A DNA stretch of 64,000 nt, from positions 186,001 to 250,000 of the forward strand of contig CDROCS010005070.1 in the NCBI GenBank assembly GCA_977020255.1, read 5' to 3'. The position numbers and the translations under genes are program-made. A model generated the notes under the pieces. The model did no database searches, was not told where the DNA came from, and was given only the letters and a program-made list of their open reading frames with translations. This DNA comes from Obrimoposthia wandeli. Lineage: Eukaryota. Below are positions 4,757-64,000 of the stretch, piece by piece (positions within the stretch are counted from its first letter, which is position 1; every line of letters starts with the position of its first letter).

Positions 4757-7700
4757 ATGCTTCATTACAACAATGTCAATATAGATGTGAAGCTCGAAGA
4801 GAAGCTGTGCGGTGACTTCTTTCTAGTGCAGCGACAAATGCCCCCATCATCGCAGAACATTGACTTACTCAGACAATACTCGATGGTGGTGAATAAACAT
4901 CTCGCTACGACGAGACCAGAAGAAGCAGTAGCAAGACAGGTAAGATGAAAATCAACGCAGTACATCGACTTGATTAGTCAAGAGTCGATGGACCTGGGCC
5001 AACTTATCGTCAATTCGCCTCCAAGAGCAAGAGCAACAGAAGAATCAAGAGAAAGAGAAGCAACATGATGAGAAGAGGTATAAAGATCCTAATACATTGA
5101 CCTGATTAGTCAGGATTCGGTAGAAGATTGGGAATACTGTTCTCCTCAGCAAACCACGGTCAACATTGATCAGTCATCAAGTTTAGTGAAAATAACAAGA
5201 CTGTCGGTAACGCCGGCGAGGAAAATTACTAACCTTTTCGACACTTATGAGGCCAGCATCAAACGCCAATGTCCATGGCAATTGATGCCATTGTCTCAGC
5301 CGGACTTCGACAAGAACCTGCTCAGTGATAAGGAACCACCTCTCGATTCCACAACATTCAGGAACACAAGAGAAGGAGTATGAGGATTTGACTCCGTTCG
5401 TCAAGGATTGGGACGGTGTGACTCCGCATCTTCCATAAAATTCTCTTGCACGAGCATTCAGTGACAGCATCATGGTCAAGTTTGACGAGGATGAGGATTT
5501 AACTTCTTTCTTCAACGAATGAGATAGTGTCACACCAACTCTCCCGACAAGCAGTGAAGCTCCAGCCAGAAGTGATTCAGTCATCGCTGAGTTGGGTGAT
5601 GACGAATGGCCTCTTTCACTGATGAATGTGATGGTTTTACTCCATAATCTGGTACTCTAATCCCTACTGCAAACGACACGGTGATGCTGCCAGAGTCCAT
5701 GTTTCGAAGGCTGCAGACTCATGTGAGACTATTTAAATAATATGTTTTAAAATTTTTCTTTCTTCAGAAACTCTAACTGTATATGGCTCCATCATTGACT
5801 TTGGTGGAGAGGCTGCTATAATCATAGATTATCGCCAACCAATGCTGTAAAGAGTTACCAAGGACTCAGCTGCGAAACCTGACGCGCTACGATATTATAC
5901 AGATAAATTATTTAAATTAAGAAAAAATAATAATTTTTCTTTTATTCATTTAGGAACCCGATCCGGTGCAGCACGTGGAGGGGGTACTAGAAAAGAATGT
6001 TCCCATCATACCGACAGACCAAAAACAAACAGTGGTTTGGAAATCATGGAGGCATAAGGTGATGACTAAAACTGTCAGAAGCAAGAAGACAAAGTTGGCG
6101 AAGCAGTGAACACTTCCAAAAATAAAGGTAAATTATTTACATAATCTTTAAAGGTATTTATGTTTTAATGCAGGAACCCAATCAGATCAGTTGCTGGAAG
6201 ATGCTACTATTATCGCTTCAAAATGCTAACAGCGGGCGGGGTTGTACAAGCCGAAGAAGACGGTGATCATCAAAAGTCTCGCGACTTCAGAGGTGCCGAT
6301 AATAGAGCAAGAGAAACCGATTTATTATTTATAAAATTAAATTCCCCAAAATAAAGGAGCTAATGGCATGGATAGCAGAAAATATCAGCAATAATGTCAA
6401 GAAAGGAGACCAGCGGTAGATCTTAAACCAACAGCTACATGCTGCTGTCACGACATAATTGAACAAGAAGATGCAGTTACAGGATAAACGACAGATAGAA
6501 AGAAAAATGGTATATTTTAATGACTTTCTTCTCTGACTATTAATTTTCGTTAAAATTACTTAATATAAAAAATTCCGGATAGTTTCTTAATATTTGAAAT
6601 AACATTACTAAGTATAAACTAAGTAAACAATTCCATAAAATGGGCGATAAAATATAATGGAATAAATTAGTAACTAAATTGTCTCCAGATTTAATGGAAG
6701 TACACGATTTTTTAAATTGATTATTGATACTCCAAAAATTGTTGTAGATAAATTATGCAATTTACTTCCAAAATATTTAGGTAGGATTATAATTTATGTA
6801 CCTTTTATTATTATTAATATGAGATTTGAAATTATATACCAACATTAACGAGAAAAAAGAATGCTGTAAAATATAAAATATTTTAAAATTTTAATAATAT
6901 TTTGTTTTTATTATTTATTTTTATTTTTAATTGTTATAAACAAAGGCATTTATGATTAATTTTTGATAATTATGCATGAATATCTTATTGACTTTGAGGC
7001 TTTCATTAATAAAAATGTAGATTATATTATAAAATAATTGTGCAATCCTTCATGTAGATATTCCGTTTAAGTATTTAGATTATAAAAATAAATTTACTAA
7101 TTTGTATCTCATTAAATATTTCTCATTTATCTCATAAGACAAGGTTTTAATTGTAGGTATATTACGTCTGATGAAGATAAGGACAAGGAGTATCCTGTGT
7201 CCTTCGATGAACATGGGGCTCACCTGTACACCTTCACGACCAACAACAAGAAGAATGCCATCATTTATTTGGTGTATACAATTTTGAATGGTCCAGCCCC
7301 AGCACCAGCAGTTACCTTCAAGCCTGCTTTTTATCCGGAAATCGCCCCGTCTATCACCTCTCCGGTTACCATTCCTGCAACCGAGTCATCCACTCATCTT
7401 ACTAACATTGAGTGGATGGATGTCATCAGCCAAGAATATTTTGAGGCGGAGAACACTGTACCAGATCCATTAACTAAACTCTCGAACAATGACTGGATGG
7501 ATAAAATAACTCAGCCGAATCTCGAGATGTAGCAGAAATTAACTCAGTGGAGTGACAACAGCCATTTGGTGCACTCTACTTCAAAGGGTCCAACCCCAAC
7601 TCCAGCAGTAGCAGTTACCTTCGAGTCAACAACTGCCTTTTATCTTAAAATTGCCCCAAATGACGCCTATCCAGTTTCCGTGTCTGCATCTGAGTTATTC

Positions 7701-8270
7701 ACTCAACTTACCAACAATGAATGGATTGATAACATCAGTCAAGCATAATTTGAAGAGAAAATCACTGTGCAAAAGCTAGGAACTCAACTCTCAAACGACG
7801 GGATGGGTAAAATAACCCAGTCGGATTTTGTCATGAAGCAGCCTTCAACTCAGTGAAGCGATAACAGCTGGTTGAACGGAATCAGCGAATCTGATTTCCA
7901 GTTGACCGATGACAGATGGATGGATGCACCAGTAGTTTGATCTGCTTCATTGGGTTTCAGAAGTGATTATTAGTTATGATTTTAAAAAAAAAGAAGTCAT
8001 ATAAATTATTTTATATTATGTTTTTCTATCAAGAACATCTTCGACAATTATGCCAACACTGGTGACTTCCCCTACAATGGCTGCATTTCACCTTCCATAA
8101 ATGATACTTAGAACGATATATGCAGGATTTAGAGGCAAGGTTTAAAATAATTATAACTAATTTAATATATTTTATTCAGCAGGTGCATCATCTGCATCAT
8201 CGGCCTTAACAGTAGTCACCTACCGATGTTCAGCATTGTCAACTCCAATGCCTAAAGTCTAAATCCAGTA
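4757..8270 (+). pseudogene. Decayed, intron-containing coding region of unknown identity directly upstream of the Polinton integrase
   Basis: GC-richer coding-like stretches broken by stops, with AT-rich 45-46 nt GT-AG intron-like gaps (5723-5767, 6128-6173). No family recognised. Confidence 0.35.
7288..7870 (+). repeat. Diverged ~300-bp tandem duplication (7288-7563, 7584-7870) encoding a Pro/Thr-rich module
   Basis: Parallel peptides GPAPAPAVTF..AFYPEIAP..THLTNIEWMDVISQ and GPTPTPAVAVTF..AFYLKIAP..TQLTNNEWIDNISQ; both copies end AACTCAGTG.AG.GA.AACAGC. Confidence 0.8.
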
Positions 8271-8286
8271 TATATATATTTTAGAA

Positions 8287-8960
8287 GCAATGAAGCAATT
8301 CACTAAAGAAATAAAACCTACAAATTTTTAAACTGACAATGCAAAGGAATTTTATAATAAACATGTTAGTGCATTATTGAAGAAAAATTGTATAATTCAT
8401 TTTTCTGCATTTTCTCAATATAAAGCTACATTAGTTGAAATATTCAATTGAACATTGAGAAAATTATTTAAAACATGTTTTATTAAAATTTAGAAAAATT
8501 CTTGGGTTTCCATTTTACTTAAAATAACTCATGCATGTAATCACGGTGAGCACTCATCATTAAAGGGTAAGAGATCCGCAGACATTTCAGATGAAAATGC
8601 TACGAAAATATGACAAAGACGTAATCAGAGCGAGGTTGTAAGAAAACCAAATTACAAGATTGGAGATTATGTGCGAATTTCACAAATTGGTACTACTCCC
8701 TATAAAAAAGAATTTCAAAGAGAATTGGAGTGATGAGGAGTTTCGTATAACAACAACAAAAAAACATTTCCGTAATGCGCCGGTAATGTATTTCATTGAA
8801 GATAAAACCAATAATGAAATTGTTGAAAAGTTTTATCAGGAAGAATTACAAGTTTTATAGTCAAAGCCGAAAGTATAAGGAATTCTCGAAATCTAAGAGA
8901 CAAAGGGTCGGAGAAATCATAAACAATATCTAGTTAAGTGGCAAGGATAGTTGTGATACT
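8287..8960 (+). pseudogene. Polinton-type DDE integrase with C-terminal chromodomain (degenerate)
   Basis: TDNAKEFYNKHVSALL (TDxGxEFYN), KATLVEIFN*TL (VERFNRTL), PNYKIGDYVRIS, NWSDEEFRI, FYQEELQ, KQYLVKWQG. Confidence 0.8.
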
Positions 8961-9168: not shown

Positions 9169-12100
9169 ATGGATTATATTTATGAAACTGATGATACAAT
9201 ATTTAGTGATGGTTCAATATCTCAGTTATCGGATTTAAAGAAGATTTATAATAACAGAATCGTATCACTAAGAGCTGCATCTAACTTGTTAGATATGTCA
9301 CATAAAACATTGCCTCGGAAAATTATATATAAGATATAATATGAATATGACGAGTATACGAAAAAAGTGACGAAAATAAATAAAGTTGCCATATATTTTG
9401 ATGGGAAAAGGATAAATAATAAAGAAGACGTGAAACTTACATTTTATACGAAAAAAGAGCTGTATAACAAGATTCACAAACCACGATGTATTAATAGTTA
9501 TTATTTGAATTTGACTAGCGATAATATTATTGAATTAGATGTGCCGCAGCACTTTATCGACTCTTTAAGAGTAATAGTTGAAGAATTCGTTACCTGTAAG
9601 ATGCAATTTGACCTCCAGGTGGAGTTTGAGAATAAGAGTGGTGTGAAACAATGGAACAAGGCTACTTTCTTTTCACCTGAATTCATCGATCAGGGTATAG
9701 AGTCTCTCAATGCTAAGATTGAGAAGAACTCTCAGAATGCCAGTAATTGGCAACTCAATCGTGTCCTGGAGATAAATTTTATTATCATTAAGACCACGGA
9801 AATTAATTATCTCCAAGGAAGAGCATATATTGCTACGCCCAATGAACTTCACAATTCGGTTGTGAATGTTCAGAATACGGGTGCTTTGCGTTTTATTTAT
9901 AGCATACTTGCTATTCTGAAGTATGATATTATATCTCAGCATAGGTATAGAGTCTCACAATATGATCCATATGTAGGAGATTTGATATACTCTTTAAACG
10001 ATATGGCGATGAGATTAGCTGATATCCCTCGTTTCGAAAGAGAGAATTCATCCTTATCAATAAATGTATTCCCTTACAATCACCTTGACATCAATACTTC
10101 TCCGGATCAAGATATTAAAAAAATTCTTTTATTGATACATTATATTGAATCACCAATCCGTAAGGCAATCCAGTTAATCTAATTCTACTGGAAGAAGGTG
10201 ATGAATATCACTACGTTGAAGTTCCAAATCCTAATAGGCTTCTAAACTATCGAAACAAAGAAGAAGGATTTGCACAAATCCAAAGTATATGGTGTCATAA
10301 ATGTCTTTGTGGATTTAGACGCAAAATAAGTTTTGAGAAGCATAAACCTCTTTGTATGATGAATATGGAGCATAATACACTATACCAGATGCCGAAGGAC
10401 AAATATATTCAATTCACAGATTTTTCAAAGACGATTTCACCGGCATTTGTTGTTTACGGAGATTCTGAAGCTGTTCCCCACCCCATTGGATTCATCATCA
10501 AATTCATCTCCTGATAGTGGCCACTATGTTGATGTCTCCAATTTCTGCAACAGGATTCACCCAAGATTACTCATTTTTCACTGGTGAAACCTGTGTTTTT
10601 CAATTCCTCTCCAAGTTGGAGATGTTGCTAAAGACAGTTGTTTTGCCTTGGTATAAGAAACATGCAGTGAAAGTTATGTAAGCACTTACGATCGAGCAAG
10701 AAGCTAGTTTCAAATCGGCTACTAGTTGTTACCTCTGTAATAAGAAATGCATTAAAAAGGTACGAGACCATGATCATATGACGGGTAAGTACCCTGTAGC
10801 TGCTCACAGTAAGTGCAATTTATCCAGACGAGTGAATCGTACTCTCCCCGTGGTGTTTCATTACCCGAGAGGGTACGATCTCCATCACATTTTCAAACAT
10901 GCGCTGAGCAACTTTCCTGACTGGAATGTCTCTGTGATTCCACAGTCTACTGAAAAATTCCAAGCAATGATGGTGCGTATTGGAGGAGTCTGTATTCAAT
11001 TCATCGATTCATTGCAGTTTTTGAATAGTAGTCTTGAAAGACTTGTTAAAAATCTAGTTTCCATTCCATTGACAAATTCTGTTTTTCAACCTCATCTTGT
11101 GAATGGTAAAGGGATATTTTCATATGATATGGCGGTATCAGAGAGTGCTCTCCGATCAATAACAAGCCTTCCACCAAAATGGGATGAAAAGATCAAAAGT
11201 GATCAATATGAGTTGGTGGAGAAAGTTTGGTAAGAGATTGGGTGTGAATCTCTTTGGGACTATATGTTGGTATATCTCAAAATGGACGTATATCTACTTG
11301 CAGATGTGTTTACAACATTTTGAGAGAAGGCTATTGCTTATGACGGACTGGAACCTCTAATTTTTTTTCATTCCAGGTTAGATATTATTATTATTATTTT
11401 TAATTATTTTTTACATAGGTTTAACATTTTCAAGCGCTTTCAAGTAGGTACTGAGCTAACAGCAGAAAGACTGACTGGATCTAGTGTGGAATTGATTCAA
11501 GAACCTGAGATGTATCGACTGTATGAAGAAGGTATTCGTGGAGGAATAACCTTCGTCAATCAACATAAGATTACTAACTCTGAGGATGATACTATTTTGT
11601 ACATTGATGTTAACAATCTTTATGGATGGGCTGTGTCCCAATTTTTACTGGTTGGAGATTTTACCTGGGTAACTGATAGATTGGAATGAGAAGTAATAAT
11701 TCATGAGCTTTCATATAAGGATCTAAGCTGTAGTGATTATGCTCATTTAATGGAAGTAGATATAAGTATTCCGAATGAATTACATGATAAACTTGACGAT
11801 CTTCCATTAGCTCTACGTAAGGATTGCCCGTCTGGAAGTCTTACTTCTAAATTACTTTTAACTCATTATCCAAAGAAGCATTACATTTTCCATTCTCGTC
11901 TGCTTCAGATGTATCTCAGGCTTGGGGCTAAAATAGATTTTTTGCATAGAGCAATTCGGTTTGCACAATGTTATAAAGACAATTCAACAAAAATCGCTGC
12001 TGCCACTAATGATTTTGAACGAAAGAATTTGAAGTTAATTCGTTATTTGGGAAATTTATTGAGAATTTGTAAAACGAATTAATTTATGGATTCGTTATAC

Positions 12101-13490
12101 ATCTCAAAAATTGTTACTTATTGTAGTAAGGCACAATTTCAACGCATGATATAAATAGAATCTGATCTAATAGCTGTTTTAGTGAATAAAGACATGATTT
12201 GTTTGGATATGCCTATTTATATAGGTCAGGCAGTACTAGATATTAGCAAATTGCGAATGTATGAGCTCCAGTACGTGTGTTGGGGTTCTACTTGAAACTA
12301 GATCCTCATATGGAGGTCCCAACGTGAGTTCTGTAGCAATAGGGCTTACAGATGTATGTGGCCTTTTTAGGATTTCTTTTACTTAGTCTCAGTTCTGAAG
12401 GTTTTTTGCACTAATATGTTGCGGGTGTGTAAAGAGGTGTGTTCGCAATGAACCAAAGGGGTTTCCGCTAATGTGGTGTCGTGTGTAAGGGGATTCGTAT
12501 TGCTCTATTCCTATAAGAGATGAACCGAAATCACTTTACTTGATTTGTAGGAAACACTATATTAATTCACACTTAGCTAAAAAGGGTTCTATAGTTGACA
12601 ATAACTTGTCTTATTACACTCGTTTCAATACAGGGTAAACAAGGATGACCCTTACCTAACGTATTGATTTAATTATTTTACCTAGTAAATTGGACGTTCA
12701 ATTTGACGTAATATTTGCTGGTTGTCAAGTGCGTTTTCCTTATCCAGACAACTCTTATTTTAAAACACACTTTTAAATTATCCTCTATTGTAATTCACTC
12801 TCAAGTTATATATTTTCACAAAATATATACAAATTCTTTAAAGTTATGCTTTATCGTAATTCAATTTCAAGTTATGTCTTTCACGATAGATATACAAAAT
12901 TCTTTAAAGTCACTCTTTATCGTATTTTAATTTCAGGTTATGTATTTTCACGATAGATACACGAACTTACCAATCAATAAGGTTCTCCTATGCCGGTTCC
13001 GATCCGCTTGTTAGAATACCAATTAACTGGAAATTGATGAATAACTGGCAATTTGATAATGCTTTTCGCCTTCGCAATTTTCCAATAGTTCCAATAACAA
13101 ATCCCGCTTTTATATGACTACCTTGCACGCGAAGCGCTGAGAATGTCTCCTGTTGTTGGGATGCGACGTTCCTCGATCAAATCTTGCTCCAATCCTTCGA
13201 CTGCCCTGTACCGGCCCTAATGTATTCTTCTCTACTAATTATTGGCGGATGATTCTGGGCTGATTTGTTCCCACTGGTTCTATTAGCGAGTCAATTCACT
13301 AATTTCTTGCTTCTTTAATTACTGACTGTTCTTATTATTTTTCTGTGCCCTTTGTAATAAAATCATTTCTTATATATATCACACAACACACGACCTTTCA
13401 AGGTCTTAAACTTAAACTTATTTTGATTTGTCTTTTTGATATTAATAAAATGTTTCTAACATATGAATACATCTCACTCTGTGTGAAATA
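9169..13490 (+). pseudogene. Protein-primed DNA polymerase B (pPolB), degenerate; split by intron 11377-11418 and solo LTR 12276-13461
   Basis: NWQLNRVLEI..RAYIATP..VVNVQN..FIYSILA, CHKC..H zinc finger, VVYGDSEA, RDHDHMTGKY..AAHSKCNL, FIDSLQFLNSSL, KGIFSYD, YLKMDVYLLADVF, GIRGG, LYIDVNNLYGWA, PIYIGQAVLDISKLRMYELQY|EYI. Confidence 0.9.
12276..13461 (-). mobile_element. Solo LTR A (~1.19 kb) of the Gypsy family seen at 52759+
   Basis: TG...CA ends; 4-bp target duplication TACG (12272-12275) / TATG (13462-13465, one CpG-type transition). Removing it restores pPolB MYELQY-EYI. The left ~260 bp align with 37150-36890 and ~150 bp with 52759+. Confidence 0.75.
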
Positions 13491-17180: not shown

Positions 17181-17310
17181 AAGTTCTAGTGTATATAGAT
17201 AAGTATGTTTAACAAATAAAATCCTTATTAAATTAGCAAAAATATAAATTTTTGCTAATTTAATAAGGATTTCATTCGTTAAACATACTTATCTATATAC
17301 ACTAGAACTT
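17181..17310. repeat. Near-perfect palindrome: 63-bp arms, 4-nt loop, 2 mismatches
   Basis: 17181-17243 is the reverse complement of 17248-17310 apart from two A/G differences. Confidence 0.9.
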
Positions 17311-33599: not shown

Positions 33600-35232
33600 C
33601 GAACCAGTTTTGTCTGTGATGTTTCATAACCTTATGGGTTATGATATGAATCATATTCTAAAATATGCTGACTTAAAATATAAATCCTTTTCAATTATGC
33701 CTAAATCAAGTAAAAGTTCATGTCCCTCCGTATAGAGATGAAGAGGGGGACATTGAAATTCAATGATTCATACCTTTTTACAACGTCACGTCTTGGATCT
33801 TTAGTTTCATACTTGTCAAGTTGTCTTTATACTACACAATACCTAAACCCTAATATTGCAACAAGTAAGGCAGTATTTCCCTATAAATATATCAGTGGCG
33901 TTGATAGGCTCATGGAGAGTCAGTTACCAGCTAAATCTGAGTTTCAAACCCGAGTCCCTGATCAGCAATATAATGAAGCCCTATGGATGTGGACCGTATT
34001 AGGGTGTAATACTATTAAAGATTACATGCTCGAATATATGAAACTTGACGTATTTGTTGTGTGATGTTTTTGAGGCCTTTAGACAGAAAGTAAGGGATGA
34101 TGATAATTTAGAGGCGCTCAATTTCTTCAGTATTCCCGGTCTCAGTTGGGCTAGCGCATTAAAAACGTTAGAGTAGGACGTACATTTTTTTGCATGATCC
34201 CGAAATGTATAACATGTTTGAGGCAGAGATCCGGGTAGGGATGACTTTCATCAATAAACATTAAGTTAAAACAACAGATGAAACATTCCTCCTATACATT
34301 GACACCAATAACCTATATGACTGGGCCTTGAGTCAACCGTTAACACATACAGATTTTACATGGATATATGATGGTTTGAAGCGATAATTTACGGTAATAT
34401 GCAGGAGTAAAGTCTTAAAAAACATGGATACTTGATGGAGGTTGATTTACACATACATATCAGTATCCATGATAAACTTGATGAATTACCGATTGCTCCT
34501 AATAGAGAAATCCCTCCCGGCTCAAAAGCTTCAAAGCTGTTGATGACTAATGAGGATAAAAATAATTACATCATACACTCACAACTACTACAATTTTACT
34601 TTTTTATGCGAGCAGAAATTAAACAAGTACATAGAGCAATAAAGTTTCATCAAGCTCCGATATTTAAAACGTATATTGACATCAATAGCCGGAATATTGG
34701 TCAAGCTGTATTGAACTTTTCTAAAATACATATGTACCAACTACAATACAGTGATCTTGACCGGTATCGTAAGCAATATCATGGTGATATCAACATAGTT
34801 GCAATGGATACAGACTCGTTTTTCTTAGAGTGTAAGCAAGTAGATACAGATATTCTCTTAAAACAAATTATTAAAGATCAGATGTTAGATACCAGTAATT
34901 ACTCACTCACATACGAGTTAATTAACGATTCTCATCAAAATGTGATTGGAAGGTTTAAAGATGAAAGCAAGTGGACAGTGCTTTATGATGAATAGGTATT
35001 TCTGAAACTGAAATGCTACTCCTTGAAAACGAGTATGAGGGCTAAGGTTATCTCCTTTAAACAAACTGACATCAGGCATGAGCATTTCATCAAGAGTTAT
35101 ATAGATTATGAGATTATAACTGCCGGTCAGACGCGTATTTTATCGTGTTATCATCAATTATTTACAATGTTTAATGATAAAATTGCGTTAAAGTGTTATG
35201 ACGATGAAAGGGTTTGGATTGAGAAAATCTAA
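33600..35232 (+). pseudogene. Polinton/Maverick pPolB remnant 2 (degenerate, internally deleted)
   Basis: VMFHNLMGYD, LKFNDSYLF, KAVFPYKYI, DYMLEYMKLDV, NFFSIPGLSWASALK, LYIDTNNLY.WALSQPL, IGQAVLNFSK, AMDTDSFF, LDTSNY, IGRFKDE, CYDDER. Confidence 0.9.
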
Positions 35233-35600
35233 TTCGTCGCATATAGACACTATAGTCTAAGATAGATGTATAAAATCTGGGGTAACTTCTTGAAAGTATT
35301 GGCTAATATCCTTTTTCTTATTGTAATAAACAGTCATTGTATATATCTTTTTAAACGATAGTATGTATATATTTTTATTGATGTTTATTTTTAATATATT
35401 GTATGTATCATAACCTTGTCTTGACTTCCTACTAGCTCCTCATTTCATTGGATAATTTCAACAAATTCTCTATAAATATATACACCTTTCAACCAATTTC
35501 TCATTATTTCAAATGAAAGATAAATTGAAAGCTATCTATGATAACCTGAGCCCAACCTAGATGACTAAGTATTCTGAAACATACTTTCACCTATTTGTTG

Positions 35601-37150
35601 TGATAGGATTAGGATTTATAAAATTAATTAATTATATATATAGAAAATAGAACCCTGAAAGTAAGGTTAAAGAAAATAAAATAAATAAATGTTAAATGTT
35701 AAATGAAATAAAATTGGATAAATAATATTAGAATAATTTTAGGACCTTGAGGTCATGTTTGTTGTACAAGTATATAAGAAAGTTTAAATTATTAGAAAAG
35801 GCCCAAGAAGTTTAAAATCAAATTAGGAAAATTCATAGAAGCCTCTTACGCTGAGTTACGCTGAGAATCTGACAACTGTAAATTGTCTGGATAAGACAAT
35901 CTTGGAAAAATAGCTCAGAAATTCAATTAGCAGAAATTCCTAGAAGCTACTTACGCTGGGAATCTACCAGGTGCCGTTCGTCTGCACTTAATTCTGGTAA
36001 GTGCATATTTTCTTAAGTAACTGATTACTCTAAATTTTGTCAGTTGCTGAGAATAGATTAGCCCAATCGCAATTGGAATATCGTCAATTAACAGAAAGAA
36101 AATAAGTATTTAAACGAATTCTGAGACATTGAGGATTGATAAAACCGTCTCGCTTAAAAACAGAAAATCATCTTCACAACAGAGTAAGAAGAAAAAGAAA
36201 GGTATTAAGTTAATTTTGAGAAATAAAATCTCATTGCTAGATAGCAGAAGACGTCGAGCAACGGGAAGTCACCTCAAACCAGAAGGGTCGTAACTCGTCA
36301 CTCGAAACAACGGAAGGAAACGCCGAGACGGACAGAAACGGGAAACAACTCGGATCGTACAAATGTGAGGAGCCAAGACGGGAGACTCGAATCCGGATCC
36401 CGTGGACTTATCGCTGTATTAGGAATAGGTGAGAAGTAAATCGGAAATAAAGTCACATTAAATTTTGCATAAACTGTAACATAAAGTTATATTGACTTTC
36501 TAATTTTAACTAATAAATTAAAAAACTAAACCGAAAATTTGTCTGAATTCCATAACATTGGAATTTTATTAATCGTTATTTTCACACTAGTAAAATACGG
36601 AATTTGAAAATTTGCACTCCATCTTTATCAACTTTTACTGTACTGAGTAAAGTCAATTCAGGGAATAGAATCAAAGCAATGTCAAACCAAAAAGGAACTT
36701 GTGGAATTACTAAGTAGAGTTAAAATCAATACGTTAGGTCAGGGTCATCCTTGTTTAACCGTGTAGAGATGAGCGCAGCCGGACAAATTATTGTCGTTGT
36801 AGCACCTTTTTAGTTAAGTGCGAATTATTGTTATTGTCGTACTCTTTAGTCAAGCGTAAATAAATATATTATTTCCTACACAACAAGTTGAGTCAAACGT
36901 TCAACCCACATAAGATTAGAGCGATATGAATCCCTCCACACACCACACTACAATAAGGGAACCCTTTCAGTACCTTGTGCACACAACTCTGTAAACACCT
37001 CACACTACATTAGCATAAAACCTTCAGACTTGAGACTAAGTTAAGTAAGATAAAACTTAATTAGGCCACATCCATATGTAAGCCCTATTGCTACAGAACT
37101 CACGTTGAGGGCTTCCTTAAGAGGATCTAGTTTTGAATAGAAACCCAACA
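35601..37150 (+). mobile_element. Solo LTR B (1550 bp) of the same Gypsy LTR family
   Basis: TGATAGG...CCCAACA flanked by a perfect 4-bp TSD GTTG (35597-35600, 37151-37154). Contains GACC..GGTC hairpin, TATATAAG and G|GTAAGT; 3' end aligns with LTRs A and C. Confidence 0.8.
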
Positions 37151-39051: not shown

Positions 39052-39919
39052 TTGAATATTATTTGATTAAGTAAACAAATGCAAAGAAAAATAATAAATT
39101 TGTTGACTTTTTTATATTTACTATTAAAATTCATTGCTTATGCATTCTCAAATAAATATTATTTTCTTAATATTTTGAACATATAATTGCATTATAATTT
39201 TCAAAATTCAATATAAATAGTAAATATTCTATTTAGAATCCCAATATGCTGCAATCTAGGCCTGATTAAAGTTCATTTGGTATGGATTTTCAGGTTTTTC
39301 TTTCAGATGAGAATTTGGATAATACTTTATAAGCATCTGATTTCAATGATATTCTCTAGTAAATTTTAAATCAAAAATATGGAAGTGGAGCTACGTATTA
39401 AATATTTAACATTTAGAATTAAATTATTTCATTATTACATTTCATATTGATTTTAAATCAATCCTTATAAATGAAGCCATTAAGTTTCAGAGCAAATGCA
39501 GAGAGCATAGAATGTTAGAAATTCGGTTTTTTGTTTATCTTTGAAAACAAGTTTTTAAGCAATAAAATATTACTTTAAATGAAAGTTACAAATCTGTTTC
39601 CATTTTTTTCGGTTACAAATGAAGCTAGGTTTAGAGTTTGTGAGAACCGTATTGTGTTTTTCTTTCTCGTTCCGGAATTATTTTCGCATTTAAACATTAA
39701 ATAAACTTTTATCGACACTTTAGGTGGGAATTTTATTTCTCAGTGACAATAATTCGATACAGCCTGACTCATTTTTGGAAATATTAAAAGAAAAGCAAAT
39801 CAAAATGGATAAATCAACTTTGCACGAGTTAAAGTTTCCTGTAAAATGAGTTTCTTATTTTATATGTTTAGTTTCCTTGACAAAAAACCGTCACTACAAT
39901 ATTAGTAATTATCGATATA

Positions 39920-41218
39920 CAGGGTGTCCCATAACGAATTACCCATGTTAAAAAACATTATAAAACGATTATAAATTCGATCAAAATCTTCAAGATTTTT
40001 AACTTTGCATGGAGTATATATTTGCTACACATCCTTATTGTTTCGTTTTACTATATCAATTTTATCAATAAGATATGGCGCCAGAAACAAAACGTGCCCA
40101 AATTGTTGCATTAAAAAATGCTGGAATTTCTAACAGTGATATAGTAAAGCAGCTGGGTGTGTGTCGCAAAACTGTTTTCAACGTCTGGAAACGACATAAT
40201 GAGGAGGCTACAACATTTGAGAAACCTAATCTAGGACGAAAAAGGTCAATCCGTACAAAACGAGTTGCTGAAGCTGTGATGAAACGAATCAAGAGGGATC
40301 CCATAGGAGCATGAGAAAATCTGCAAAAGCTATGAATATCTCAAAATCCTCAATGCATATGATATTTAAAAAGGATTTACTGATGACTGCATACAAAAAG
40401 CAATCTAGGCAGTTAATTTCAGGTGCTTCCAAGAAGAAACGGCTCAACAGGGGCATAATTATGTTAGCAGAAATGAAGCGCGCCGGCGAAAAAAAATGTA
40501 TCTGGTCTGATGAGAAGATCTTTACCGTGGAGGCAGTTGCTAATAAGCAAAATGATAGAATTTACGCACGTCATTCTACAGATCTTCCCGAAGGTAGCAG
40601 AACACATTTCAAGCGACAGAAACCAGCTGGAGTCATGGTGTGGGCTGCAGTTGCTTCTGATGGGTCTAAGTCCCCTCTGATATTCGTCGATGAAGGTGTT
40701 AAGGTGAACACTAATGTATACATCAAAATTTTGGATGAAAACGTGTTACCCTGGATCACTAGCACATTTGGAGAGCATTATGTATTTACTCAAGATGGTG
40801 CACCGGCTCACACGTCTAATTTGATTCAAAAATGGTGTAAAGATCATTTTTCTGAATTCTGGGACAAGAACGTATGGCCTCCCTCAAGTCCAGACATTAA
40901 CCCAATGGACTTTTCTATTTGGTCTATCTTAGAGAGCAATGTTTCCTCTAAATCATACTCAAATGTAGCTGCTCTAAAATAAGCCCTTCTTAACACATGG
41001 TCCAAGTTTGATGAGGAGGTGGTGCGGCGATCTTGTCAATCAGTGACCACTCGTTTACAGGCTATGGTGAAAGCAAGAGGCGGCCATTTTGAGATTTGAC
41101 TATTTTAATATATTGGTAAAATATATGTAAACGTATGGTCCGAGTTTTATTATTCTATCTTAAGTTAACATTGAATAATTTAAAAAAAAACATGGGTAAG
41201 TCATTATGGGACACCCTG
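39920..41218 (+). mobile_element. Tc1/mariner superfamily, maT (DD37D) element, full length
   Basis: TA-flanked TIRs CAGGGTGTCCCATAA..TTACCCATG / CATGGGTAA..TTATGGGACACCCTG; transposase inside. Confidence 0.95.
40075..41099 (+). pseudogene. DD37D transposase with one frameshift (~40305) and one premature stop (40980-40982)
   Basis: HTH N-terminus; WSDEK, QDGAPAH, SPDINPMD with 37 residues between the 2nd and 3rd Asp. The frame continues past the TAA to ..ARGGHFEI*. Confidence 0.92.
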
Positions 41219-43039
41219 TATTATTGCATCTTCATGATATAGTAATGATATTAAATTTATTATGAAATGTCAAATACATTTGAGGATCAAAATATAAAAT
41301 GGGATAGATAATATCTTGCGGGCATCTAAAACTTAATAACTCTGTAATTTCTCCAATTCAAAATTAGAAACAAAAAATCAATAGTATAAAAAAAATTCAA
41401 GAACCTTGTTAAATCAAAGTATCCCAAATCTATTAGCTAACATGGTCTTAATACCTGTAAAAAACTATCCATTCTGTACCATAAAATTAAAACAACAACA
41501 AAATGTCTGAAAATATCATAGAAACAACAAAAGGTTTATAAGTAATTTGAACCCTTAAGCAATTAAATTAAAATCTTTTGAAATGTCTCTCTAAAATAAA
41601 ACAACATTTCAAAATTTTGTAACTTTTAAATCCAAATTATCCTCTAGACATTCTTATTAAACTGTACAACTACAGTAAGAAATCAATACTATTGAAATAA
41701 CGCTGTCGATTTTAAAGAAAATCATTCTGGAAATTATGAAATTTCTTGTAAATTTTTTTTTAGACAAATGGAAGAAAACTCCACTATCAATAAGTCGACA
41801 AACGACAAAGGGTTGAAATATTGCTTCCCTATGTTATTTTATATTGTTACTTTAGTTGTACAAATATCATAAATTTGGTGGTTTTTGTACATTTTGTACA
41901 TCACTACTGCTAATAATAATATTATTAATAATGTTAATGAGGATTATTATCGCAATGCTCATAAATTAGTTCTTCTTCATTTTCAAGAACAATTCAACCA
42001 TAGAATGACACATGAAATCCTGGTCGGGAAATTGGACTAACAAAAACCGGGCCTCAATGTAAATGCACGCATATTGTGAGTCAAGTTTTGTCGAATGTGT
42101 ACGCGGCACCGAGAACGTTACATTGAAGAGAGAAGTATGGCCAAGTAGTAGTAGGGTTAGTGGTAGCAGTATCAGCAGAAAATTCAGTAGTAGTAGAAAG
42201 AAGCTGAAAAAGATTTATTGTTATTTCGTACACTAGAAGAGAAGAATCCCATATTTTCTTGCTGTATACCCATGGATTTATGGGTAAATAGGAAAAACCA
42301 AGCCAGAAATCCAGATAAGAGGGAGTATGGAGCGTGAAAACGAAGCATACACGTGCATTGAATGCTGGGTTTTCTTAGCTTCCGAAATTGTCAAAGTGTA
42401 GCAGCCCAAAATCTGGGTCAAAACGTTGCGCAAGACTGCAGTTTTCAGAGCGCAGAAAGAAGCTTCAAATAATCGCTAGAAGAAAGTTTTAGTGACAATA
42501 AAATCGGCGGAGACCAAACATTATCATTAGGAATATTAATATTATCATTATACTGTCATTGTATTTGGAATCTTCCTCCCACACTCAGATCTCCAAATCG
42601 GATTGTCGATTTACTGCAGTGTGTCTTGTGGATCGGTCCCCTTCGTCTTGTCAGCTCGATTTGGGAACGGGAAACGACAGGCCCAGACCAAACGCTTCTC
42701 AGCCAATCAACTCAGCTGGGAGATTTCTCTAGCAGAGATCATTTGCGAATTAAATGACTTCTGCTGGCTTGTAGATGATGTTCTTCCTGCTTAGTTGCAT
42801 TTCTTCAGCAGCCTTGTGTTGTGTCGTACTGAAAAATGCAGCAGCAGTGCGGATAATAACTGTGAGTGTGTGTGTATGTGTGAGAGATTGCCTACTTGCT
42901 TATTTGACTGTTTAGAATATATCGACAGACGTGTGTGTCCGGCTGTGTATGGATGTAAACCGTCCAGCGCATTTCATGGAGCAGCCGATTATATAAAAGG
43001 TGCAAAAAGTTACTGTAACAAGCATTTTAGGTTTAAGCA

Positions 43040-46000
43040 ATGCAACAAAATTATGGCAGCGTTTCTCAGTTGGTCGCTGACAATTGTGTAACTGCCAATA
43101 ACTACTCGGTATTGTCTCTTCTCGACCAGGATCATCCACTCGACCTTTCTAAATGTGTCCGGAAATCTCTGGACGTAAACAACAATAGTAACATCGGTGC
43201 TGCTAGCGTCTCCCAGAATGCCAACATCAGCAATCCACTTCTGGAAGCGCCATTCGTCATGCAAAAACTCTTCGAAGAGCTCCTGAAACGCCGCACGGAC
43301 TGGCCCTCTCCCTACCCCGGGTCCAGCAACAGTGGCTTCTTCCCACCACTTCCACCGCCACCTCCGCTCGACCCGCGTCTCCAATGGACCTCTTTGTGGC
43401 ATCGACTGATGAACAGTGTCGCCCAGCAGCACTCGACACCGAACAGCAGCGGCAAACTACAGAACCCACAATTGGAGACTCGCCGTAGACCGACTTTGTC
43501 ACCGCGCTCCCTCACAAAACAGCGTCACAAGCGAACCAAGGTAACCGACTCGAGACTCTTGAAACGTGCTACAATCGGGGGTGAGGATCCTAGCATCGAT
43601 TTCAGCAGTTCGGCGCTGATCAACGAGGATGAAGACTACGAAAATCGGTCCATCCTGTCTCGGTCACCTTCGGTTAACGACTCCGAACTGGATGATGAAC
43701 CCAACAACCTCAACCATAATTCCAACATAAGCCAATCATCTTTGACTGCCGCCAGTTTGTGCTGTAATGATCCTAAGAAATATACATTAACTCCGGTACA
43801 TTTGCGCAAAGCCAAACTCATGTTCCTTTATACTCGTTATCCCAACTCCCAAATGCTGAAGAGCTTCTTTCCCGACATACTGTTTTACAAACAAAATACG
43901 GCTCAGTTAGTCAAATGGTTTAGTAATTTTAGGTAATTTTTACGTTTTATTAATTTGGAAATATTTTCAGTTCACGTAACCAATCAGAATTTGATTTAAA
44001 GGTTTTTTACTTTTTCAGAGAATTCTACTACAGTGAAATGGAAAAGGCTGTTCAAAGGTACTTATCCGGCGGTATCAAGTTCTCAACTGAACTCATTGTT
44101 ACTGAAGACAGTGAACTATTCAAAAATCTGATGACACACTTTAACAAAAATAGCCAAATTGAGGTCAGTACTGCAAAATTGCTTCAATTTTGTATCTTCT
44201 TGAGAATTTCAACCATTAAAATAGTCGAAAAATAACAGATCAGATAAAAATTTATGAAAATCCAATTTGATCTAAACAAATAAGAATTCATTTCAATTCA
44301 TTTTAATAATTCTGGCGAATGAGAGAATGTAAAATTTAGAAAATTAGCTGAAGAAATTAAAGAAATTTTTCAAAAGTTTTATTAAAATATACTATCACTA
44401 TTTTTTTAGAAATATAAAATTCAAAAAATTGATCAATTTTAACTTTTTCAAAATTTATGAATTTATAATGGCAGATATCAAGGTTTAGACGTTTTTTTAA
44501 ATAAACCGTATTTAAATATTTTAAAAAATCTGTAGTTGTCTATTTGATTTATTTTTAAATTTTGATTATCTTATAATTATTGTGGCCATTGAGAAGAAAT
44601 TTTATAGACTAAATAAAGTATAGTAAAAATCATTGTAAAAACAGGAAAAATATTGTCTTTATAACTTACATAATCCATGTTAGCAGCATGTACCATGTAG
44701 CAATGATATTCGGAATTATTTAAATAACGAACTTTAGCTTGATTTTACTTTTTTTTCAAACTTTACAATTGTGAATAAAAGTCTTAATAAAAATTAATTT
44801 AATTGAAATTGGTCATATAGATTGATCAATTTTATAAAATCAAATTTTAAACTGAAAAACTGGATATTGGGACTCTACTAGTATGCATTGTGCTAAGAAA
44901 TCGGATTATAAAGAAATGGTTACAAAGGTCTTTTGGGAATATTCTAAGAAATTTCTGATTGACATACTTCAAGTAAACAATACAATTATTTTCATTTCAA
45001 TGGTCGAAGAAAACAGTTCTGGACAATATTTTATTGTGTTTTCTCACGCTAAATTGTAGGAAATTATGTTGGTTTTCAAAGTTAATATTGTAACAAATTT
45101 CTATCCAACATTGAAAATAGTTTGAATACAGAAGATTAAATCTTAAATATAAAAAAGACTCTGTTTATTTGTTTTATATATGTCTTTGGATGTATTATGC
45201 AATGAATTTTCATATTAAACTTATAACTTATTTCAATGATTTTATTTTAAAAAATTAAACATTTATAAGAGAATAATCTGAAGTTTCATTTAATCTAACT
45301 CATATTAATTTTATAGGTTAATGATATTAAATTAGCGAATTTATGCTTAAAATTTGCTAAATACATCTATTAAAATAGAAAATCCGTAACAGAAAACGAT
45401 AAAAGGTCTAGTTTTAAGAATGATATAATTTAATTTTTTAGCTTATTTAAATATATGATTTTAAATAAGTCAAATATAATTTTTCTATTTGAAAATAAAA
45501 TTAACTATATTAAAAGTTATATTATTTGTTAAATAATAATAAAATAAATTTGAACTTTAAAATAAATAAAATGTAATTATATTATTAACTTTAGTTTTTT
45601 TATATGAAACAATTAGTATAACCTACACGAATAATAGTAGAAAATAATCTTTTCAAAATCATTTTCGTTTAAAGGTATGACAATTTAAGGACATTTAAAC
45701 AAAGATATTTTAATCTTTAAGTTTAAAATTTCTCATTTTTGCAAGTGTATAGAAATTATGAATGAAAAAATTATGCCAGCATTAATATTTAGGGGTATAA
45801 TATTTAAACTGTTAATAGATAAATTAAATTGTATCAACAAAGTTTTTTTACAACTCAACATAAACAGAATATACAGGGTATTTCTGAATAGCCACATACT
45901 TTTGTTTTAACATTATTTTAGATTTTTGTAAATAATGCTTTCTTTAATAATTTTAAGATAAATAAGTGATATATCTTATAGTATGTAGATTAATAAATAA

Positions 46001-47198
46001 AAATTAAACAATGTATTATCAATTTTCATAGTTAATTAATAATATGTAATTGGAAGCAATAAAGTAAATTATAAAAATTCATTGTAAAATACAACATTCA
46101 CTGAAAGAATAGATCAAACAATACATATAAGAAAAGGTTTGAATAAATTCGATTGTAACAAATGTATTTTCTGTCAAAAATAAAATATATTTATGGAATA
46201 AACTCAAGCTATGAGGTTGATAAAACATATAAAAACATTCTAAATCGTAACAATGTTTATTTGAACAAAATTAAGGAAAAATAATTGTATTTATTTAGCA
46301 TAAATTTTGTATTTATCTAAAAATATTGTCAATCAATTTATAATAAAATATAATTAACTTTTGTAAATGCTTTATATAATTAGAATTGATAAATGACTAA
46401 ATATATAAAAGAAGTTTTATCGTATTGAAAACTATATTATAGATAATAAAATTATATTTTTTCAAATTAAAGTTGTTATCAACACCCTTATTATAGATTA
46501 AAACAAAACTATGACATTTGCAAGATGATTTATAATTATATTTTTAAAATAAATTTCCAGGCTCAATAATTTTATATTTTACATACTTTGTGTATAAGTT
46601 TGATTTATTTGATCTGTCTTCGATTTATTTAATAGTTCATTTTTATCTTTTAATTGCAAATTAGGTACAAATTAAATATAAAATAGCAATAATCAAGATT
46701 TAATTGTTAAAATGTAATTCAAATTATTATAATTTTTATAATTAATAATAACATATTTTATTTAAAGCCTAAAATGTATAAAAACATTATAACCTTAATT
46801 TGTATTTCTGAATCCAGGTCCCAAAGGAGTTTATGATGTGTGTTCAAGTGACCCTACGTGAGTTCTATGAGGCCATTTCTGTGGGCAAGAATCTTCACCA
46901 ATCCTGGAAAAAACCTATCTACAAGAATATCGCCAAACTCGATCAACCTCTACCGGAGTTCTTTCGAGATCTGTCCTGGATGTTAGAGCTAGCTCGTGAT
47001 GACTCTAATAGTGGTAGCAACAACGGGAACAGCAACAACGGGAACAGCAACAACGGCAGTAATAACAACACCAACAACAACAATGTTTTGCTTATGGCCA
47101 GTCACCCGCATCATCATCACCACCACCAGCAACAGCAGCAGCATCAACTGCATGCTCCAGCTATGCATCCTTCCATCCTTCATCATCAGAGCTGCTAG
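43040..47198 (+). CDS. pros: Prospero/Prox homeo-prospero transcription factor; exons 43040-43932, 44019-44163, 46818-47198 (472 aa if 43040 is the start)
   Basis: [31 protein letters not shown]|[25 protein letters not shown]|[32 protein letters not shown]; GT-AG introns preserve frame (1419 nt). Upstream exons cannot be excluded. Confidence 0.95.
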
Positions 47199-55001: not shown

Positions 55002-55532
55002 TCAATTGTCATATGTCAGGTCAATTGTAATTGTCGGCTGGTTCCGACTGGCCAGGTAGCGCAGAACCTGCTCCAGGGGTAGGTCGGGAAAGGACGGACT
55101 GTCCCCGTTGTACAGGTGTAGTTGTTGGCTCCGGGTTAGGTGTGGACTCTCGATGAACAGGTCGAAATGCTGCCCGTTTATGGCGTGATTTTCTATCCAG
55201 TGCCGTCTGGCCTGGAACCACGAGTGGCAGTCTCGACTAGACCGCCATCTCTCGCGGATGCCCAGTTGTGTGTCGCGCCGGCGTGCGAGACACACGTAGC
55301 ATTGGCAATGTATGCCACCAATGCAGCTGGCAGGCGATCGGGTGCCCTTGTGCCTTCCACGGCTCTGGAGCGTCCATTTGGCAAAGGGTGTCCGGCACAG
55401 TGGACATGTGATATGGCCGGGGGGTCGAGCCTTGGTCCACAAATAGAGGCACTCCTCGTGGAATTTGTGACGGCAGCCGACAGGGGATGCTGATACCGCC
55501 CAAATCTTCTCCATGCATACAGAACACTTCAT
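55002..55532 (-). CDS. RING-H2 protein 3 with extra Cys motif and C-terminal extension (176 aa from MKCSVC)
   Basis: CSVC..CRHKFHEEC..W..CPLC, then CIGGIHCQCYVC; acceptor TTTTCTTATGCAG directly before the ATG. Confidence 0.85.
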   Translation of the reverse strand: MKCSVCMEKIWAVSASPVGCRHKFHEECLYLWTKARPPGHITCPLCRTPFAKWTLQSRGRHKGTRSPASCIGGIHCQCYVCLARRRDTQLGIRERWRSSRDCHSWFQARRHWIENHAINGQHFDLFIESPHLTRSQQLHLYNGDSPSFPDLPLEQVLRYLASRNQPTITIDLTYDN

Positions 55533-55872
55533 CTGCATAAGAAAACAACTCCTTTCAATTTGGGGTTCACTGTTCTCATTGTTAATTTAAATTTTATTTC
55601 AAAACGAATCCTTAGTTATCTAATCCTACCGAGTTTTGTTTCGATTTTAGGCATGTTTACGCATTCACACTAAGCATAAAAATTGTCTTTTTTAGAAATT
55701 CAGTATAATAATTACAATTTCAGTTAAACATCATACATAAAAATGGTAATGGTCAATTTACAGTTCACAAGATTATATAATTATGATTACAATTATGGTA
55801 GCTAATTTATCGCGGTATGCGATACACAGGGTAGTTCATGATATCACGTTCAAGTCAGAAAGTTACCTTCGA

Positions 55873-56178
55873 TTATTGTTGGGGATTGGGCTGGCCTGTG
55901 CTTCGCTCCTCCACGCAGAACGAGCACCAGCAATCGCAGATGGTTTTCCAGCAGTGTACGATGGGTACCACTGCTTGGAGGCTGTCCTGGTTGTACACGT
56001 AGTGTACTGAGAAGGTCGCTCTGCACATCGGGCAGGTTGGGAAGTCGAGGGGATTGTTGCTGTTTGCGATGGGGATCCACGTCTCGAGGCATTCGACGTG
56101 GAAAAGGTGGTCGCAGTTGTTGGGCTTGGTGTAGAAGTCCACGATGCTCTCGTAGCAGATGGAACATTCTCCAGACAT
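55873..56178 (-). CDS. RING-H2 protein 2 (101 aa)
   Basis: CSIC..CDHLFHVEC..W..CPMC, then CWKTICDCWCSFC. Confidence 0.9.
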   Translation of the reverse strand: MSGECSICYESIVDFYTKPNNCDHLFHVECLETWIPIANSNNPLDFPTCPMCRATFSVHYVYNQDSLQAVVPIVHCWKTICDCWCSFCVEERSTGQPNPQQ

Positions 56179-56238
56179 TACTGTGGGAGGGTTGATGTTG
56201 AATTTGGGCTCGATTGAGGACTGGTGGTTGTGTGATGT

Positions 56239-56538
56239 TTACACAAAAGTGGTCTGATTTTGTCGATCTGACAAACAGTAATAACACCAACACTCTCCGA
56301 AATTCTTCCAACAGAATACCACCTGTACATATACATCCTCTTGGTTGGGTTCTAACATGATGAATCTTGCGAATTGTCTTCTGCATACAGGGCAACAAGG
56401 GTATGTTGGATGTCCGAACTGTCCATAAGTTCTGATCCATGTCGATAAACATTCCTCGTGGTGTAAATGGCTGCAGGTTTCGGGTCTTGTTCTTCGTTCG
56501 GTTAGATCTTCCAAACATATTGGGCATTCTTCGGACAT
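56239..56538 (-). CDS. RING-H2 protein 1 (99 aa from MSEECPIC)
   Basis: CPIC..CSHLHHEEC..W..CPVC, then CWKNFGECWCYYC. Confidence 0.9.
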   Translation of the reverse strand: MSEECPICLEDLTERRTRPETCSHLHHEECLSTWIRTYGQFGHPTYPCCPVCRRQFARFIMLEPNQEDVYVQVVFCWKNFGECWCYYCLSDRQNQTTFV

Positions 56539-56661
56539 TCTAAATACATGATGATGATTAATTTCTACATGAGTTTTATATATTTCTACTATTTGTACAA
56601 TCACTTCTAGATATTTCTAAACATTTCACACACTAATTTATCTACAACCTCCTCTGACTCA

Positions 56662-57711
56662 TCATATCTTGATGGGAGGCGGAGGTAAGGGTCGCAATTC
56701 CACTTCCTCCATGATGGGTGTGTCACAGCATCGCAATCTTTCGCATTTTCGTCGTATTCCTGGGCATACTTGACTGCCTTTTACGCACACGATTGTCAAT
56801 AGAACCACTGCTGTTGACACTACGGCCATTCCAATTAGGGCATTGACCGCTGTTATTCCGCTGTCTGATGATTTATAATCATACTTCATTTTGTTGTTTG
56901 TCGGTTCGAATGACATTTCCATGGGTTTTGATCGGTTTCCATGTATTATGTCCGATTTTCTAAAAATTCGGGGATTTGGGTGTTTTGTTTCTGATGGAAC
57001 AGGTATTATTATTTTGGATTGGAAATGATGTTTGGGATCTAGTGGGATCGTTCCCCTCACTCTTGTCCTCTTAATAATTGTACTTTGGTTTCTGGGATTG
57101 AGCTCTTTTTCTTTCGCTTCTGTCTTTGTTCTGATCACTGTCGGTTTTTTGGAATGTCGTTTACTTTCGTTTACTTTTGCCTTCTTTCTGACTAGGATTG
57201 GCCTTTTGGGAATGATTTTCCTGGGTTTGATACTTATACCGGATCTACGAAATCGACGGTTCTGGTATCTTAGAGTTATGTAGAATATTTCACCTGTTAT
57301 TATCATGATTATGGTCGAGGTCTCTGTAGTATTACTGGAAATTCGATTACACAGACATTCTGTGTTAAAATGTGGTACTAACATTTGGCTTTGGATTTCG
57401 AATCTGATTCCGCCATCTGGGTTGGGACACATTACTGTTACTCTGTCGGTCTCTAGCAATCTGAAAAATATCCTAACGGAATTCCATACGGCTTTACGTC
57501 GTCTACCTGTGATCATAATCCTGTCGACAATTTTCCAGATGCGTTCATCTCTAGGCAATATTAATGACTTTGTTCGGATACTTTGGATAATCCGCTTCCT
57601 CTTCGATATTGTTATCCGTAGGTATAACACTTTTTCATGATACAATAATATTAAATTGTAATCGGGTGTATTTTGGTCGATTTTTATTCTGACCTGTCGG
57701 ATGACATACAA
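56662..57711 (-). CDS. Basic ectodomain + C-terminal TM + Cys/Pro-rich tail; probably the C-terminal part of the preceding ORF
   Basis: 349-aa open frame, open upstream to ~57780; sequons NTT/NES/NQS/NRS; RFRR; TM ITAVNALIGMAVVSTAVVLLTIVCV; tail CC..PLPPPP. Confidence 0.75.
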   Translation of the reverse strand: MYVIRQVRIKIDQNTPDYNLILLYHEKVLYLRITISKRKRIIQSIRTKSLILPRDERIWKIVDRIMITGRRRKAVWNSVRIFFRLLETDRVTVMCPNPDGGIRFEIQSQMLVPHFNTECLCNRISSNTTETSTIIMIITGEIFYITLRYQNRRFRRSGISIKPRKIIPKRPILVRKKAKVNESKRHSKKPTVIRTKTEAKEKELNPRNQSTIIKRTRVRGTIPLDPKHHFQSKIIIPVPSETKHPNPRIFRKSDIIHGNRSKPMEMSFEPTNNKMKYDYKSSDSGITAVNALIGMAVVSTAVVLLTIVCVKGSQVCPGIRRKCERLRCCDTPIMEEVELRPLPPPPIKI

Positions 57712-57772
57712 TTTCTGATCGATATTGTCGGTTGCTGACGTCTGTAGATGAATGTCTACTACGTGATTTGTT

Positions 57773-63057: not shown

Positions 63058-63068
63058 GATTCCTTCTT

Positions 63069-64000
63069 TTATCGAGTATTTTTCGTCATTTCATCGTTTA
63101 GATCTCCTTTCACCAACAATTCTTTGATTAGACTCAGTTCTTCATCTTCTGTCTGTTCTTTGATGATTTCTTTGTCTATTTTACCCGTCTTTAGCAAAAT
63201 CGTCAGTAGATTTGCTTCTCCTTTTTGGTCATTGGCTCCATCTTCTTCTGGAATTATGTTTCCTTTTTCATCTACATTTGTCAATCTCGATAAACAATCT
63301 GCGTTGCCATTCGACTTTCCGGTTCTATAACGGATTTCTAGATCGAATTCGGCCAATTTTAGAAACCATCTGTTTAATCTACTCATCTCATCTCTATGTT
63401 TATATAAGAACTGTAGTGGTTTGTGATCTGTATACAGGAATACTTTTTGTCCTAGCAAATAGTGTCTGTACTGTCTACATGAATACACTATGGCTAGACA
63501 TTCCTTTTCGATAACAGAGTATCCTCTTTCGGCTCTGTTTAATCCTCTACTTGCATACTCAATGACGTGTTCTCTTCCTTCGTCATCCTCTTGTCCCAAT
63601 ACTGCTCCTACAGCATAGTTACTTGCATCTGTCATGAGTATGAACTGTCGGTTTATATCTGGAAACGCTAATATCGGTGTTTTTATCAATCTTTCTTTTA
63701 AATGCTCGAACGCTTGTTGGGCTTCTTCTCCCCATATGAACTTCTCATCTTTTCTCGTCAACTTTCTCAATGGTGTTGCTATATCTGAAAAATGTTCAAC
63801 AAATCGTCTATAATAATTCGCAAGACCTAAAAAACTCTGTATCTCCTTAACAGTCTTTGGTGCTAAATGCGCTTTTACTTTCTCGATCTTTGCCGGATCA
63901 GGTCGAATGCCTTCTTTCGATACTATATGTCCTAAAAATGTTACTCGCTCTTTAGCCCATTCGCATTTTGTAGGTTTAACTTTTAATTTAGCGTTTTCCA
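63069..64000 (-). CDS. Gypsy Pol: RT C-terminus/connection and RNase H (5' truncated by window)
   Basis: Open frame from the window end: KCEWAKERVTFLGHIVSKEGIRPDP..SFLGLANYYRRFV..TDASNYAVGAVL..EKECLAIV..YTDHKPL..NADCLSR. Confidence 0.96.
   Translation of the reverse strand, partial: ENAKLKVKPTKCEWAKERVTFLGHIVSKEGIRPDPAKIEKVKAHLAPKTVKEIQSFLGLANYYRRFVEHFSDIATPLRKLTRKDEKFIWGEEAQQAFEHLKERLIKTPILAFPDINRQFILMTDASNYAVGAVLGQEDDEGREHVIEYASRGLNRAERGYSVIEKECLAIVYSCRQYRHYLLGQKVFLYTDHKPLQFLYKHRDEMSRLNRWFLKLAEFDLEIRYRTGKSNGNADCLSRLTNVDEKGNIIPEEDGANDQKGEANLLTILLKTGKIDKEIIKEQTEDEELSLIKELLVKGDLNDEMTKNTR

Follow-up and report, generated by a model that had tools for sequence, protein, structure and literature searches.

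A probable spliceosomal intron preserved as a fossil in a Maverick/Polinton DNA polymerase gene of Obrimoposthia wandeli

Mavericks/Polintons are described as having core genes that lack introns, which is a virus-like trait, and a study on vertebrates reports that intact Mavericks are intron-free (PMC8097293). The same study presents a polymerase gene (pPolB) adjoining an rve integrase, and decay of most copies through stops, frameshifts and insertions. We find this neighborhood and this kind of decay in a 64,000-nucleotide stretch from Obrimoposthia wandeli (contig CDROCS010005070.1, positions 186,001 to 250,000 of the forward strand; hereafter the window). Unlike the vertebrate elements as portrayed there, the copy found here bears a candidate intron, and stop-free pPolB genes of three relatives (L024, L050 and L080) carry short predicted GT-AG introns. 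In nematode Mavericks with wasp/krma cargo, Maverick DNA is likewise reported to carry spliceosomal introns, but they lie in the cargo and the core genes are called intronless (10.1101/2022.07.12.499685), whereas here the core polymerase is split. Dinoflagellate introners, as the retrieved sections of two reports describe them, are likewise spliceosomal-type inserts in Polinton-like elements, mostly acquired after integration; they form multi-copy mobile families in protists, whereas the segment discussed here is a 42-nt low-complexity animal sequence without known siblings (PMC11957031, PMC12166617). Group I introns are present in protist PLVs, according to the part of PMC12220804 that was available. 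The portions at hand of five further sources (PMC10748475, PMC8502044, PMC11296320, 10.64898/2026.07.28.741278 and 10.1101/2022.07.28.501842) contain nothing on spliceosomal introns in pPolB. We found no literature report of such introns in animal elements, in a search whose scope excluded most subscription papers and Repbase reports and to which supplement annotations may add some.

The insert occupies positions 11377-11418 of the plus strand, within the first of two pPolB copies in the window (copy 1). It is 42 nt long, begins with GT, ends with AG, and interrupts the Gly codon of the I-P-G motif past its first base (phase 1). The earlier note had described an AT-rich GT-AG insert splitting the Gly of a PGL motif, and its coordinates, ends and composition (9.5% GC) are borne out. 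This Pro and this Gly occur in every one of the 17 aligned relatives, and the flanking codons are colinear with theirs, I-P on the left and, on the right, a 25-nt coding piece (11419-11443, +) corresponding to the relatives' L-S-W-x-S-A-x-K motif. The donor matches U1 at 7 of 9 positions, as in host introns (7 and 7), and a stop codon in the polymerase frame follows directly 3' of it. The acceptor ends in TAG (YAG type), with pyrimidines at 7 of the 8 positions from -12 to -5. The insert is of low complexity, with an (ATT)n run, and its only three G residues are at +1, at +5 and at the last base. Both junctions read AG|GT within a 5-nt direct repeat, AGGTT, whose left copy (11375-11379, +) comprises exon end and donor and whose right copy (11417-11421, +) comprises acceptor and exon start, so that six registers are equivalent. 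We regard the insert as probably a U2-type minimal intron, gained by a Maverick/Polinton lineage while it was active and now a fossil in a dead copy; we put the probability of this reading at roughly 0.65.

Copy 1 (9541-12274, +) was delimited by a Pfam match to PF03175 (E 4.8e-11), a tblastn map and a splice-blind alignment to two relatives. It is dead, with stop codons at 10679, 11231, 11321, 11687 and 12152 and five further frame breaks against either relative. About 180 aa of the C-terminal part are lacking, the gene being cut at ~12277 by a repeat (12278-12670) that has an inverted relative at 36723-37150. The members of this inverted pair start with TG and are very deeply covered, and they are LTR-like by their end letters only. 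Among 8000 scored candidates, 4121 were homologues, the best at 45-46%; the 120 proteins listed from these all measure at least 817 aa, a set that cannot reveal split genes.

Upstream lies a broken integrase remnant (8278-8950, +) consisting of a core and a chromodomain-like end. It gave no direct Pfam rve match and a weak Chromo match (E 0.007), and it aligned by tblastn (E 7e-14 to 7e-12) with ORFs adjoining pPolB in three other loci (L110, L111 and L113), which do match rve. On these sequence features, a PF03175 polymerase with a retroviral-type integrase as its neighbor, copy 1 is classed as Maverick/Polinton. No inverted-repeat pair framing it was present among the longest 25 of 44 pairs, and the copy is a truncated remnant. 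A search for capsid, ATPase and protease genes gave no Pfam match among 128 ORFs of at least 70 aa, a screen that decayed genes could escape. Two further features lie upstream: a broken Ser/Thr/Pro-rich ORF with internal repeats and no Pfam or Atlas match (7116-7900, +), and a 40-nt AT-rich GT-AG stretch near a repeated-DNA edge (8140-8179, +). Homologues of the latter were sought, and none could be tied to the 40-nt stretch itself.

The strongest evidence for introns in pPolB comes from intact relatives, the window case being a fossil. We screened 100 pPolB loci, and 7 of the 61 rows with extra DNA were AT-rich GT-AG segments, first picked by eye and checked afterwards. L024 (718-760 and 1133-1176, +), L080 (153-195 and 571-614, +) and L050 (291-333 and 706-753, counted on the minus strand) each hold two of 43-48 nt, in phase 1 and at shared positions; the seventh, of 79 nt, lies in the stop-free pPolB of L044 (1664-1742, counted on the minus strand), a different lineage. 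No stop interrupts the middle and last exons of L024, L050 and L080, and the lengths of five of the six segments are not divisible by three. Both positions are common to L024 and L080, the proteins of which are only 50-57% identical, and the second segment measures 44 nt in L080 against 48 nt in L050 with exon frames intact. Judged by their sequences, the segments in all four loci are best taken as introns in intact polymerase genes.

These loci also bear on the lineage of copy 1. In a quick tree that included L024, L080 and L044 (L050 was not among its rows), L024 grouped with P0023 and P0265, and L080 with P0016 and P0018; these four proteins belong to the 35-row clade in which the window copy falls. 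L044 fell outside it. Introns appear patchy within the clade, because the closest full-length relatives of L024 each consist of one long ORF, and the window copy has neither of the two introns of L024 and L080. The insert resembles the introns of L024, L050 and L080 in length (42 against 43-48 nt), GC content (10 against 11-17%), excess of T over A, donor match (7 against 6-7 of 9) and phase 1. In sequence it is not significantly similar to any of the six clade introns (shuffle fractions 0.13-0.74).

The splice signals exceed chance. GT-AG ends alone are weak evidence, arising in 3404 of 200,000 (1.7%) random AT-rich insertions with a 5-nt duplication. Given the site and the AGGTT duplication, random AT-rich filler derived from the window had +4A and +5G in 2.9% of 200,000 trials, an acceptor equal to that of the insert in 2.2%, and the donor and acceptor signals jointly in 0.07%. 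At random polymerase sites, GT-AG ends with an equal donor and acceptor appeared in 14 of 200,000 insertions with a 5-nt duplication and in 2 of 200,000 without one. The criteria are standard but were set post hoc, and the insert was chosen for its intron-like look, so that all these chance figures overstate the case. The AG|GT at both ends, which the earlier note took to be as expected for gain at a proto-splice site, does read so at both junctions; it is no independent evidence for such gain, because any insertion that duplicates AGGT yields AG|GT twice.

We then looked for the insert in other copies. A survey of 108 pattern loci, comprising 73 with a readable motif, 3 that were too short and 32 unmatched by the motif rule, gave no insert at the Pro-Gly site in any of the 73 readable loci, none by eye in the 32, and none in 14 further DNA loci. 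Two proteins offer a lead. P0188, a member of the same 35-row clade (100/98), stops short directly after Pro-Gly; its brief tail, made up of AT-rich codons, starts G-K-Y and resembles read-through into a GTAAGT donor. P0250 starts directly after the same motif. The two may point to a shared intron site, or both may be merely decayed. Searches for more ORFs ending at Pro-Gly returned 3 matches among 22 candidates and 30 among 242, none of them new. An intron-specific DNA pattern scan gave one false match, in viral contigs, and a single-protein scan and a second-motif scan gave no result. P0144 was considered as a similar case and dropped, as it comes from a 906-nt contig and a full-length cluster member exists. 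Separately, the N-termini of P0144, P0281, P0005 and P0019 are abrupt or preceded by non-homologous leaders of AT-rich codons, as in exon-bounded ORFs.

The second pPolB copy (copy 2, 33604-35262, +), also dead, had been offered as an uninterrupted comparison. It is indeed uninterrupted at the Pro-Gly motif, but it belongs to a distant lineage and is no pre-insertion sister; its long branch lies outside the copy 1 clade, so the time of the gain cannot be read from it. Contig depth was available from four runs on one sample in one study, perhaps the very sample from which the window derives, with 11377-11413 masked as repeat and with 4 joint rows and 11 loose-end rows at masked repeats left out. 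Over the polymerase, the summed depth exceeds that of the single-copy flank by a factor of about a thousand or more, a figure that gives no copy number, and the bins neighboring the masked interval are compatible with presence or absence of the insert in sister copies. A contig end 34 letters from 11448 was set aside, as it coincides with the mask edge. A joint between 11445 and 10359 occurs in all four runs at ~20 to 50 times single-copy depth and perhaps represents a rearranged derivative family.

The host is an AT-rich animal, and its prospero gene (43037-47195, +), which has a low-complexity N/H/Q tail, supplies the two definable introns of the window. At 86 and 2654 nt, these two give no support to the earlier statement that the size of the insert matches host introns. 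Elsewhere the window contains a near-perfect hairpin with 63-nt arms (17181-17310), a Tc1/mariner-type element (39917-41221) whose transposase is frameshifted and whose terminal inverted repeats measure 33 nt, and a cargo-rich LTR element (55005-64000, minus strand) in which Gypsy-type RNase H and integrase genes precede a 1351-aa ORF bearing a dual-specificity phosphatase domain and three RING-finger ORFs. The idea that this cargo retrotransposon is of the planarian Burro kind did not establish a host lineage.

The main alternative is that the insert arose by break repair in an already dead copy, with AGGTT duplicated around an AT-rich, partly slipped fill, producing an intron mimic that was never spliced in a working gene. 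The 5-nt direct repeat and the (ATT)n run fit this account, as do the five stops of a heavily decayed gene, the GT-AG ends that arise in 1.7% of random insertions with a 5-nt duplication, and the absence of the insert from all DNA relatives read (73/73 and 14/14). Degraded vertebrate Mavericks, in the available text on them, bear large insertions that gene predictors call introns (PMC8097293). The surroundings of the insert also bear on it. The segment running from DxxLLxDxF to xRGG takes up 87 codons in the window copy. Of the 262 relatives surveyed, 221 were anchored and 41 were not; among the anchored ones this segment measures 65 residues in 190 and 66-75 in 31. The excess of 66 nt is made up of three changes: a frame-breaking T-run of 10 nt in place of the relatives' four codons (11360-11369, +), 7-16 nt upstream of the insert; the 42-nt insert itself; and, overlooked in the earlier note, another 26 nt of extra sequence (11444-11469, +) beginning 25 nt past the insert. 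Three length changes cluster, the two other frame-breaking ones within ~60 nt of the insert, a pattern that a single untidy repair would produce. The splice-blind alignment labels the first event as 'extra 40 nt'. As the three changes total +66 nt, the unspliced strand stays in the upstream frame, but it encodes an unrelated peptide.

Against repair in a dead copy stand the joint frequency of 0.07% for signals in letters that a duplication does not supply, the presence of real introns of this size in the clade, and a 5-nt boundary repeat at a host intron in the window as well. Nor is derivation from the upstream flank supported: as a templated copy or local tandem duplication of that flank the insert was not significant (11-18% of 2000 shuffles), and its likeness to the flank was equalled by 8.6% of 6080 window stretches. 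We consider such a repair unlikely, although it retains appreciable weight because the three length changes cluster and no second carrier has been seen.

The 26-nt stretch raises the question of two introns, of 42 and 26 nt, flanking a 25-nt micro-exon. In one placement the stretch can be read as GT..AG and contains a CTAAC-like word, and colinearity of the motif holds to both sides of it. But it has 46% GC and is A-rich, with pyrimidines at 2 of 8 positions and an A preceding the final AG; it is shorter than all introns seen, and its +5 base differs in other copies. Its position, at a loop of variable length in relatives (7-16 residues), better fits a coding loop with later loss of frame, or repair filler. 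A source for it was sought within the window and none was found; contigs cover it at 0.2-0.5% of the summed depth at 11503. The stretch was judged not intron-like and is not taken as an intron, and a pair of introns here seems very improbable.

About equally improbable is an origin from a mobile intron (introner) or a host intron copied into the element, whether the element was then alive or already dead. Introners are known inside dinoflagellate Maverick-like elements (PMC11957031, PMC12166617), and such an arrival would account for ready-made splice signals. The insert, though, is not closely matched elsewhere in the window, inspection by eye showed no terminal inverted repeat, and the comparison with the six clade introns gave no significant likeness. 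Weakest of all is host domestication of the polymerase with the intron gained in a cellular gene, which the earlier note had allowed: intron gain often follows domestication, but five stops, five further frame breaks, truncation by a repeat, an integrase remnant still next to the polymerase and membership in a repeat family of very high summed contig depth, about a thousand times that of the single-copy flank or more, where an intact low-copy frame would be expected, contradict it at this locus and leave it barely credible.

Intron gain at the level of the element, the other possibility raised in that note, is our best reading, given intact intron-bearing relatives and signals beyond chance, though no second copy with the insert was seen. 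We infer that an element lineage, still active, gained a minimal intron at the proto-splice site CAG|GT within the Pro-Gly codons before the death of this copy. Host RNA polymerase II would have transcribed the element and the host spliceosome would have excised the 42 nt, whereas unspliced RNA would have hit a stop directly past the Gly codon. Element copying being DNA-based, the intron would have been inherited with no RNA step to erase it, and copy 1 would have died later, keeping the intron as a fossil.

The gain may have come about by repair of a staggered break with duplication of AGGTT, which would fit the junctions. A review of AGGT proto-splice gain by duplication or break repair describes junctions of the kind seen here, with AG|GT on either side and a short direct repeat; unlike there, no duplication of a whole segment is seen here (PMC3443670). 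In Drosophila, that review reports, repeats of at least 5 bp flank old and new introns equally often (26% vs 25%), and the flanking repeat therefore cannot fix the mechanism of gain (PMC3443670).

Tentatively, and with more doubt than confidence, we extend this reading to a clade of animal Mavericks that would repeatedly gain phase-1 pPolB introns of 42-48 nt at no fewer than three sites, including the Pro-Gly site, which would be shared with the element of P0188. Such elements would depend on host splicing, and intron size could record or limit their hosts; if so, an intron of only 42 nt would be left over from horizontal transfer wherever the minimal introns of the host itself are longer.

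An intron-bearing pPolB departs from the description of Maverick/Polinton core genes as intronless. Spliceosomal introns in this gene imply nuclear transcription by Pol II and splicing by the host, and they provide datable presence/absence markers of intron gain in a fast-copying DNA element. Gene callers would also break such elements apart and count too few of them, and copies classed as degraded by insertions may in some cases be intact.
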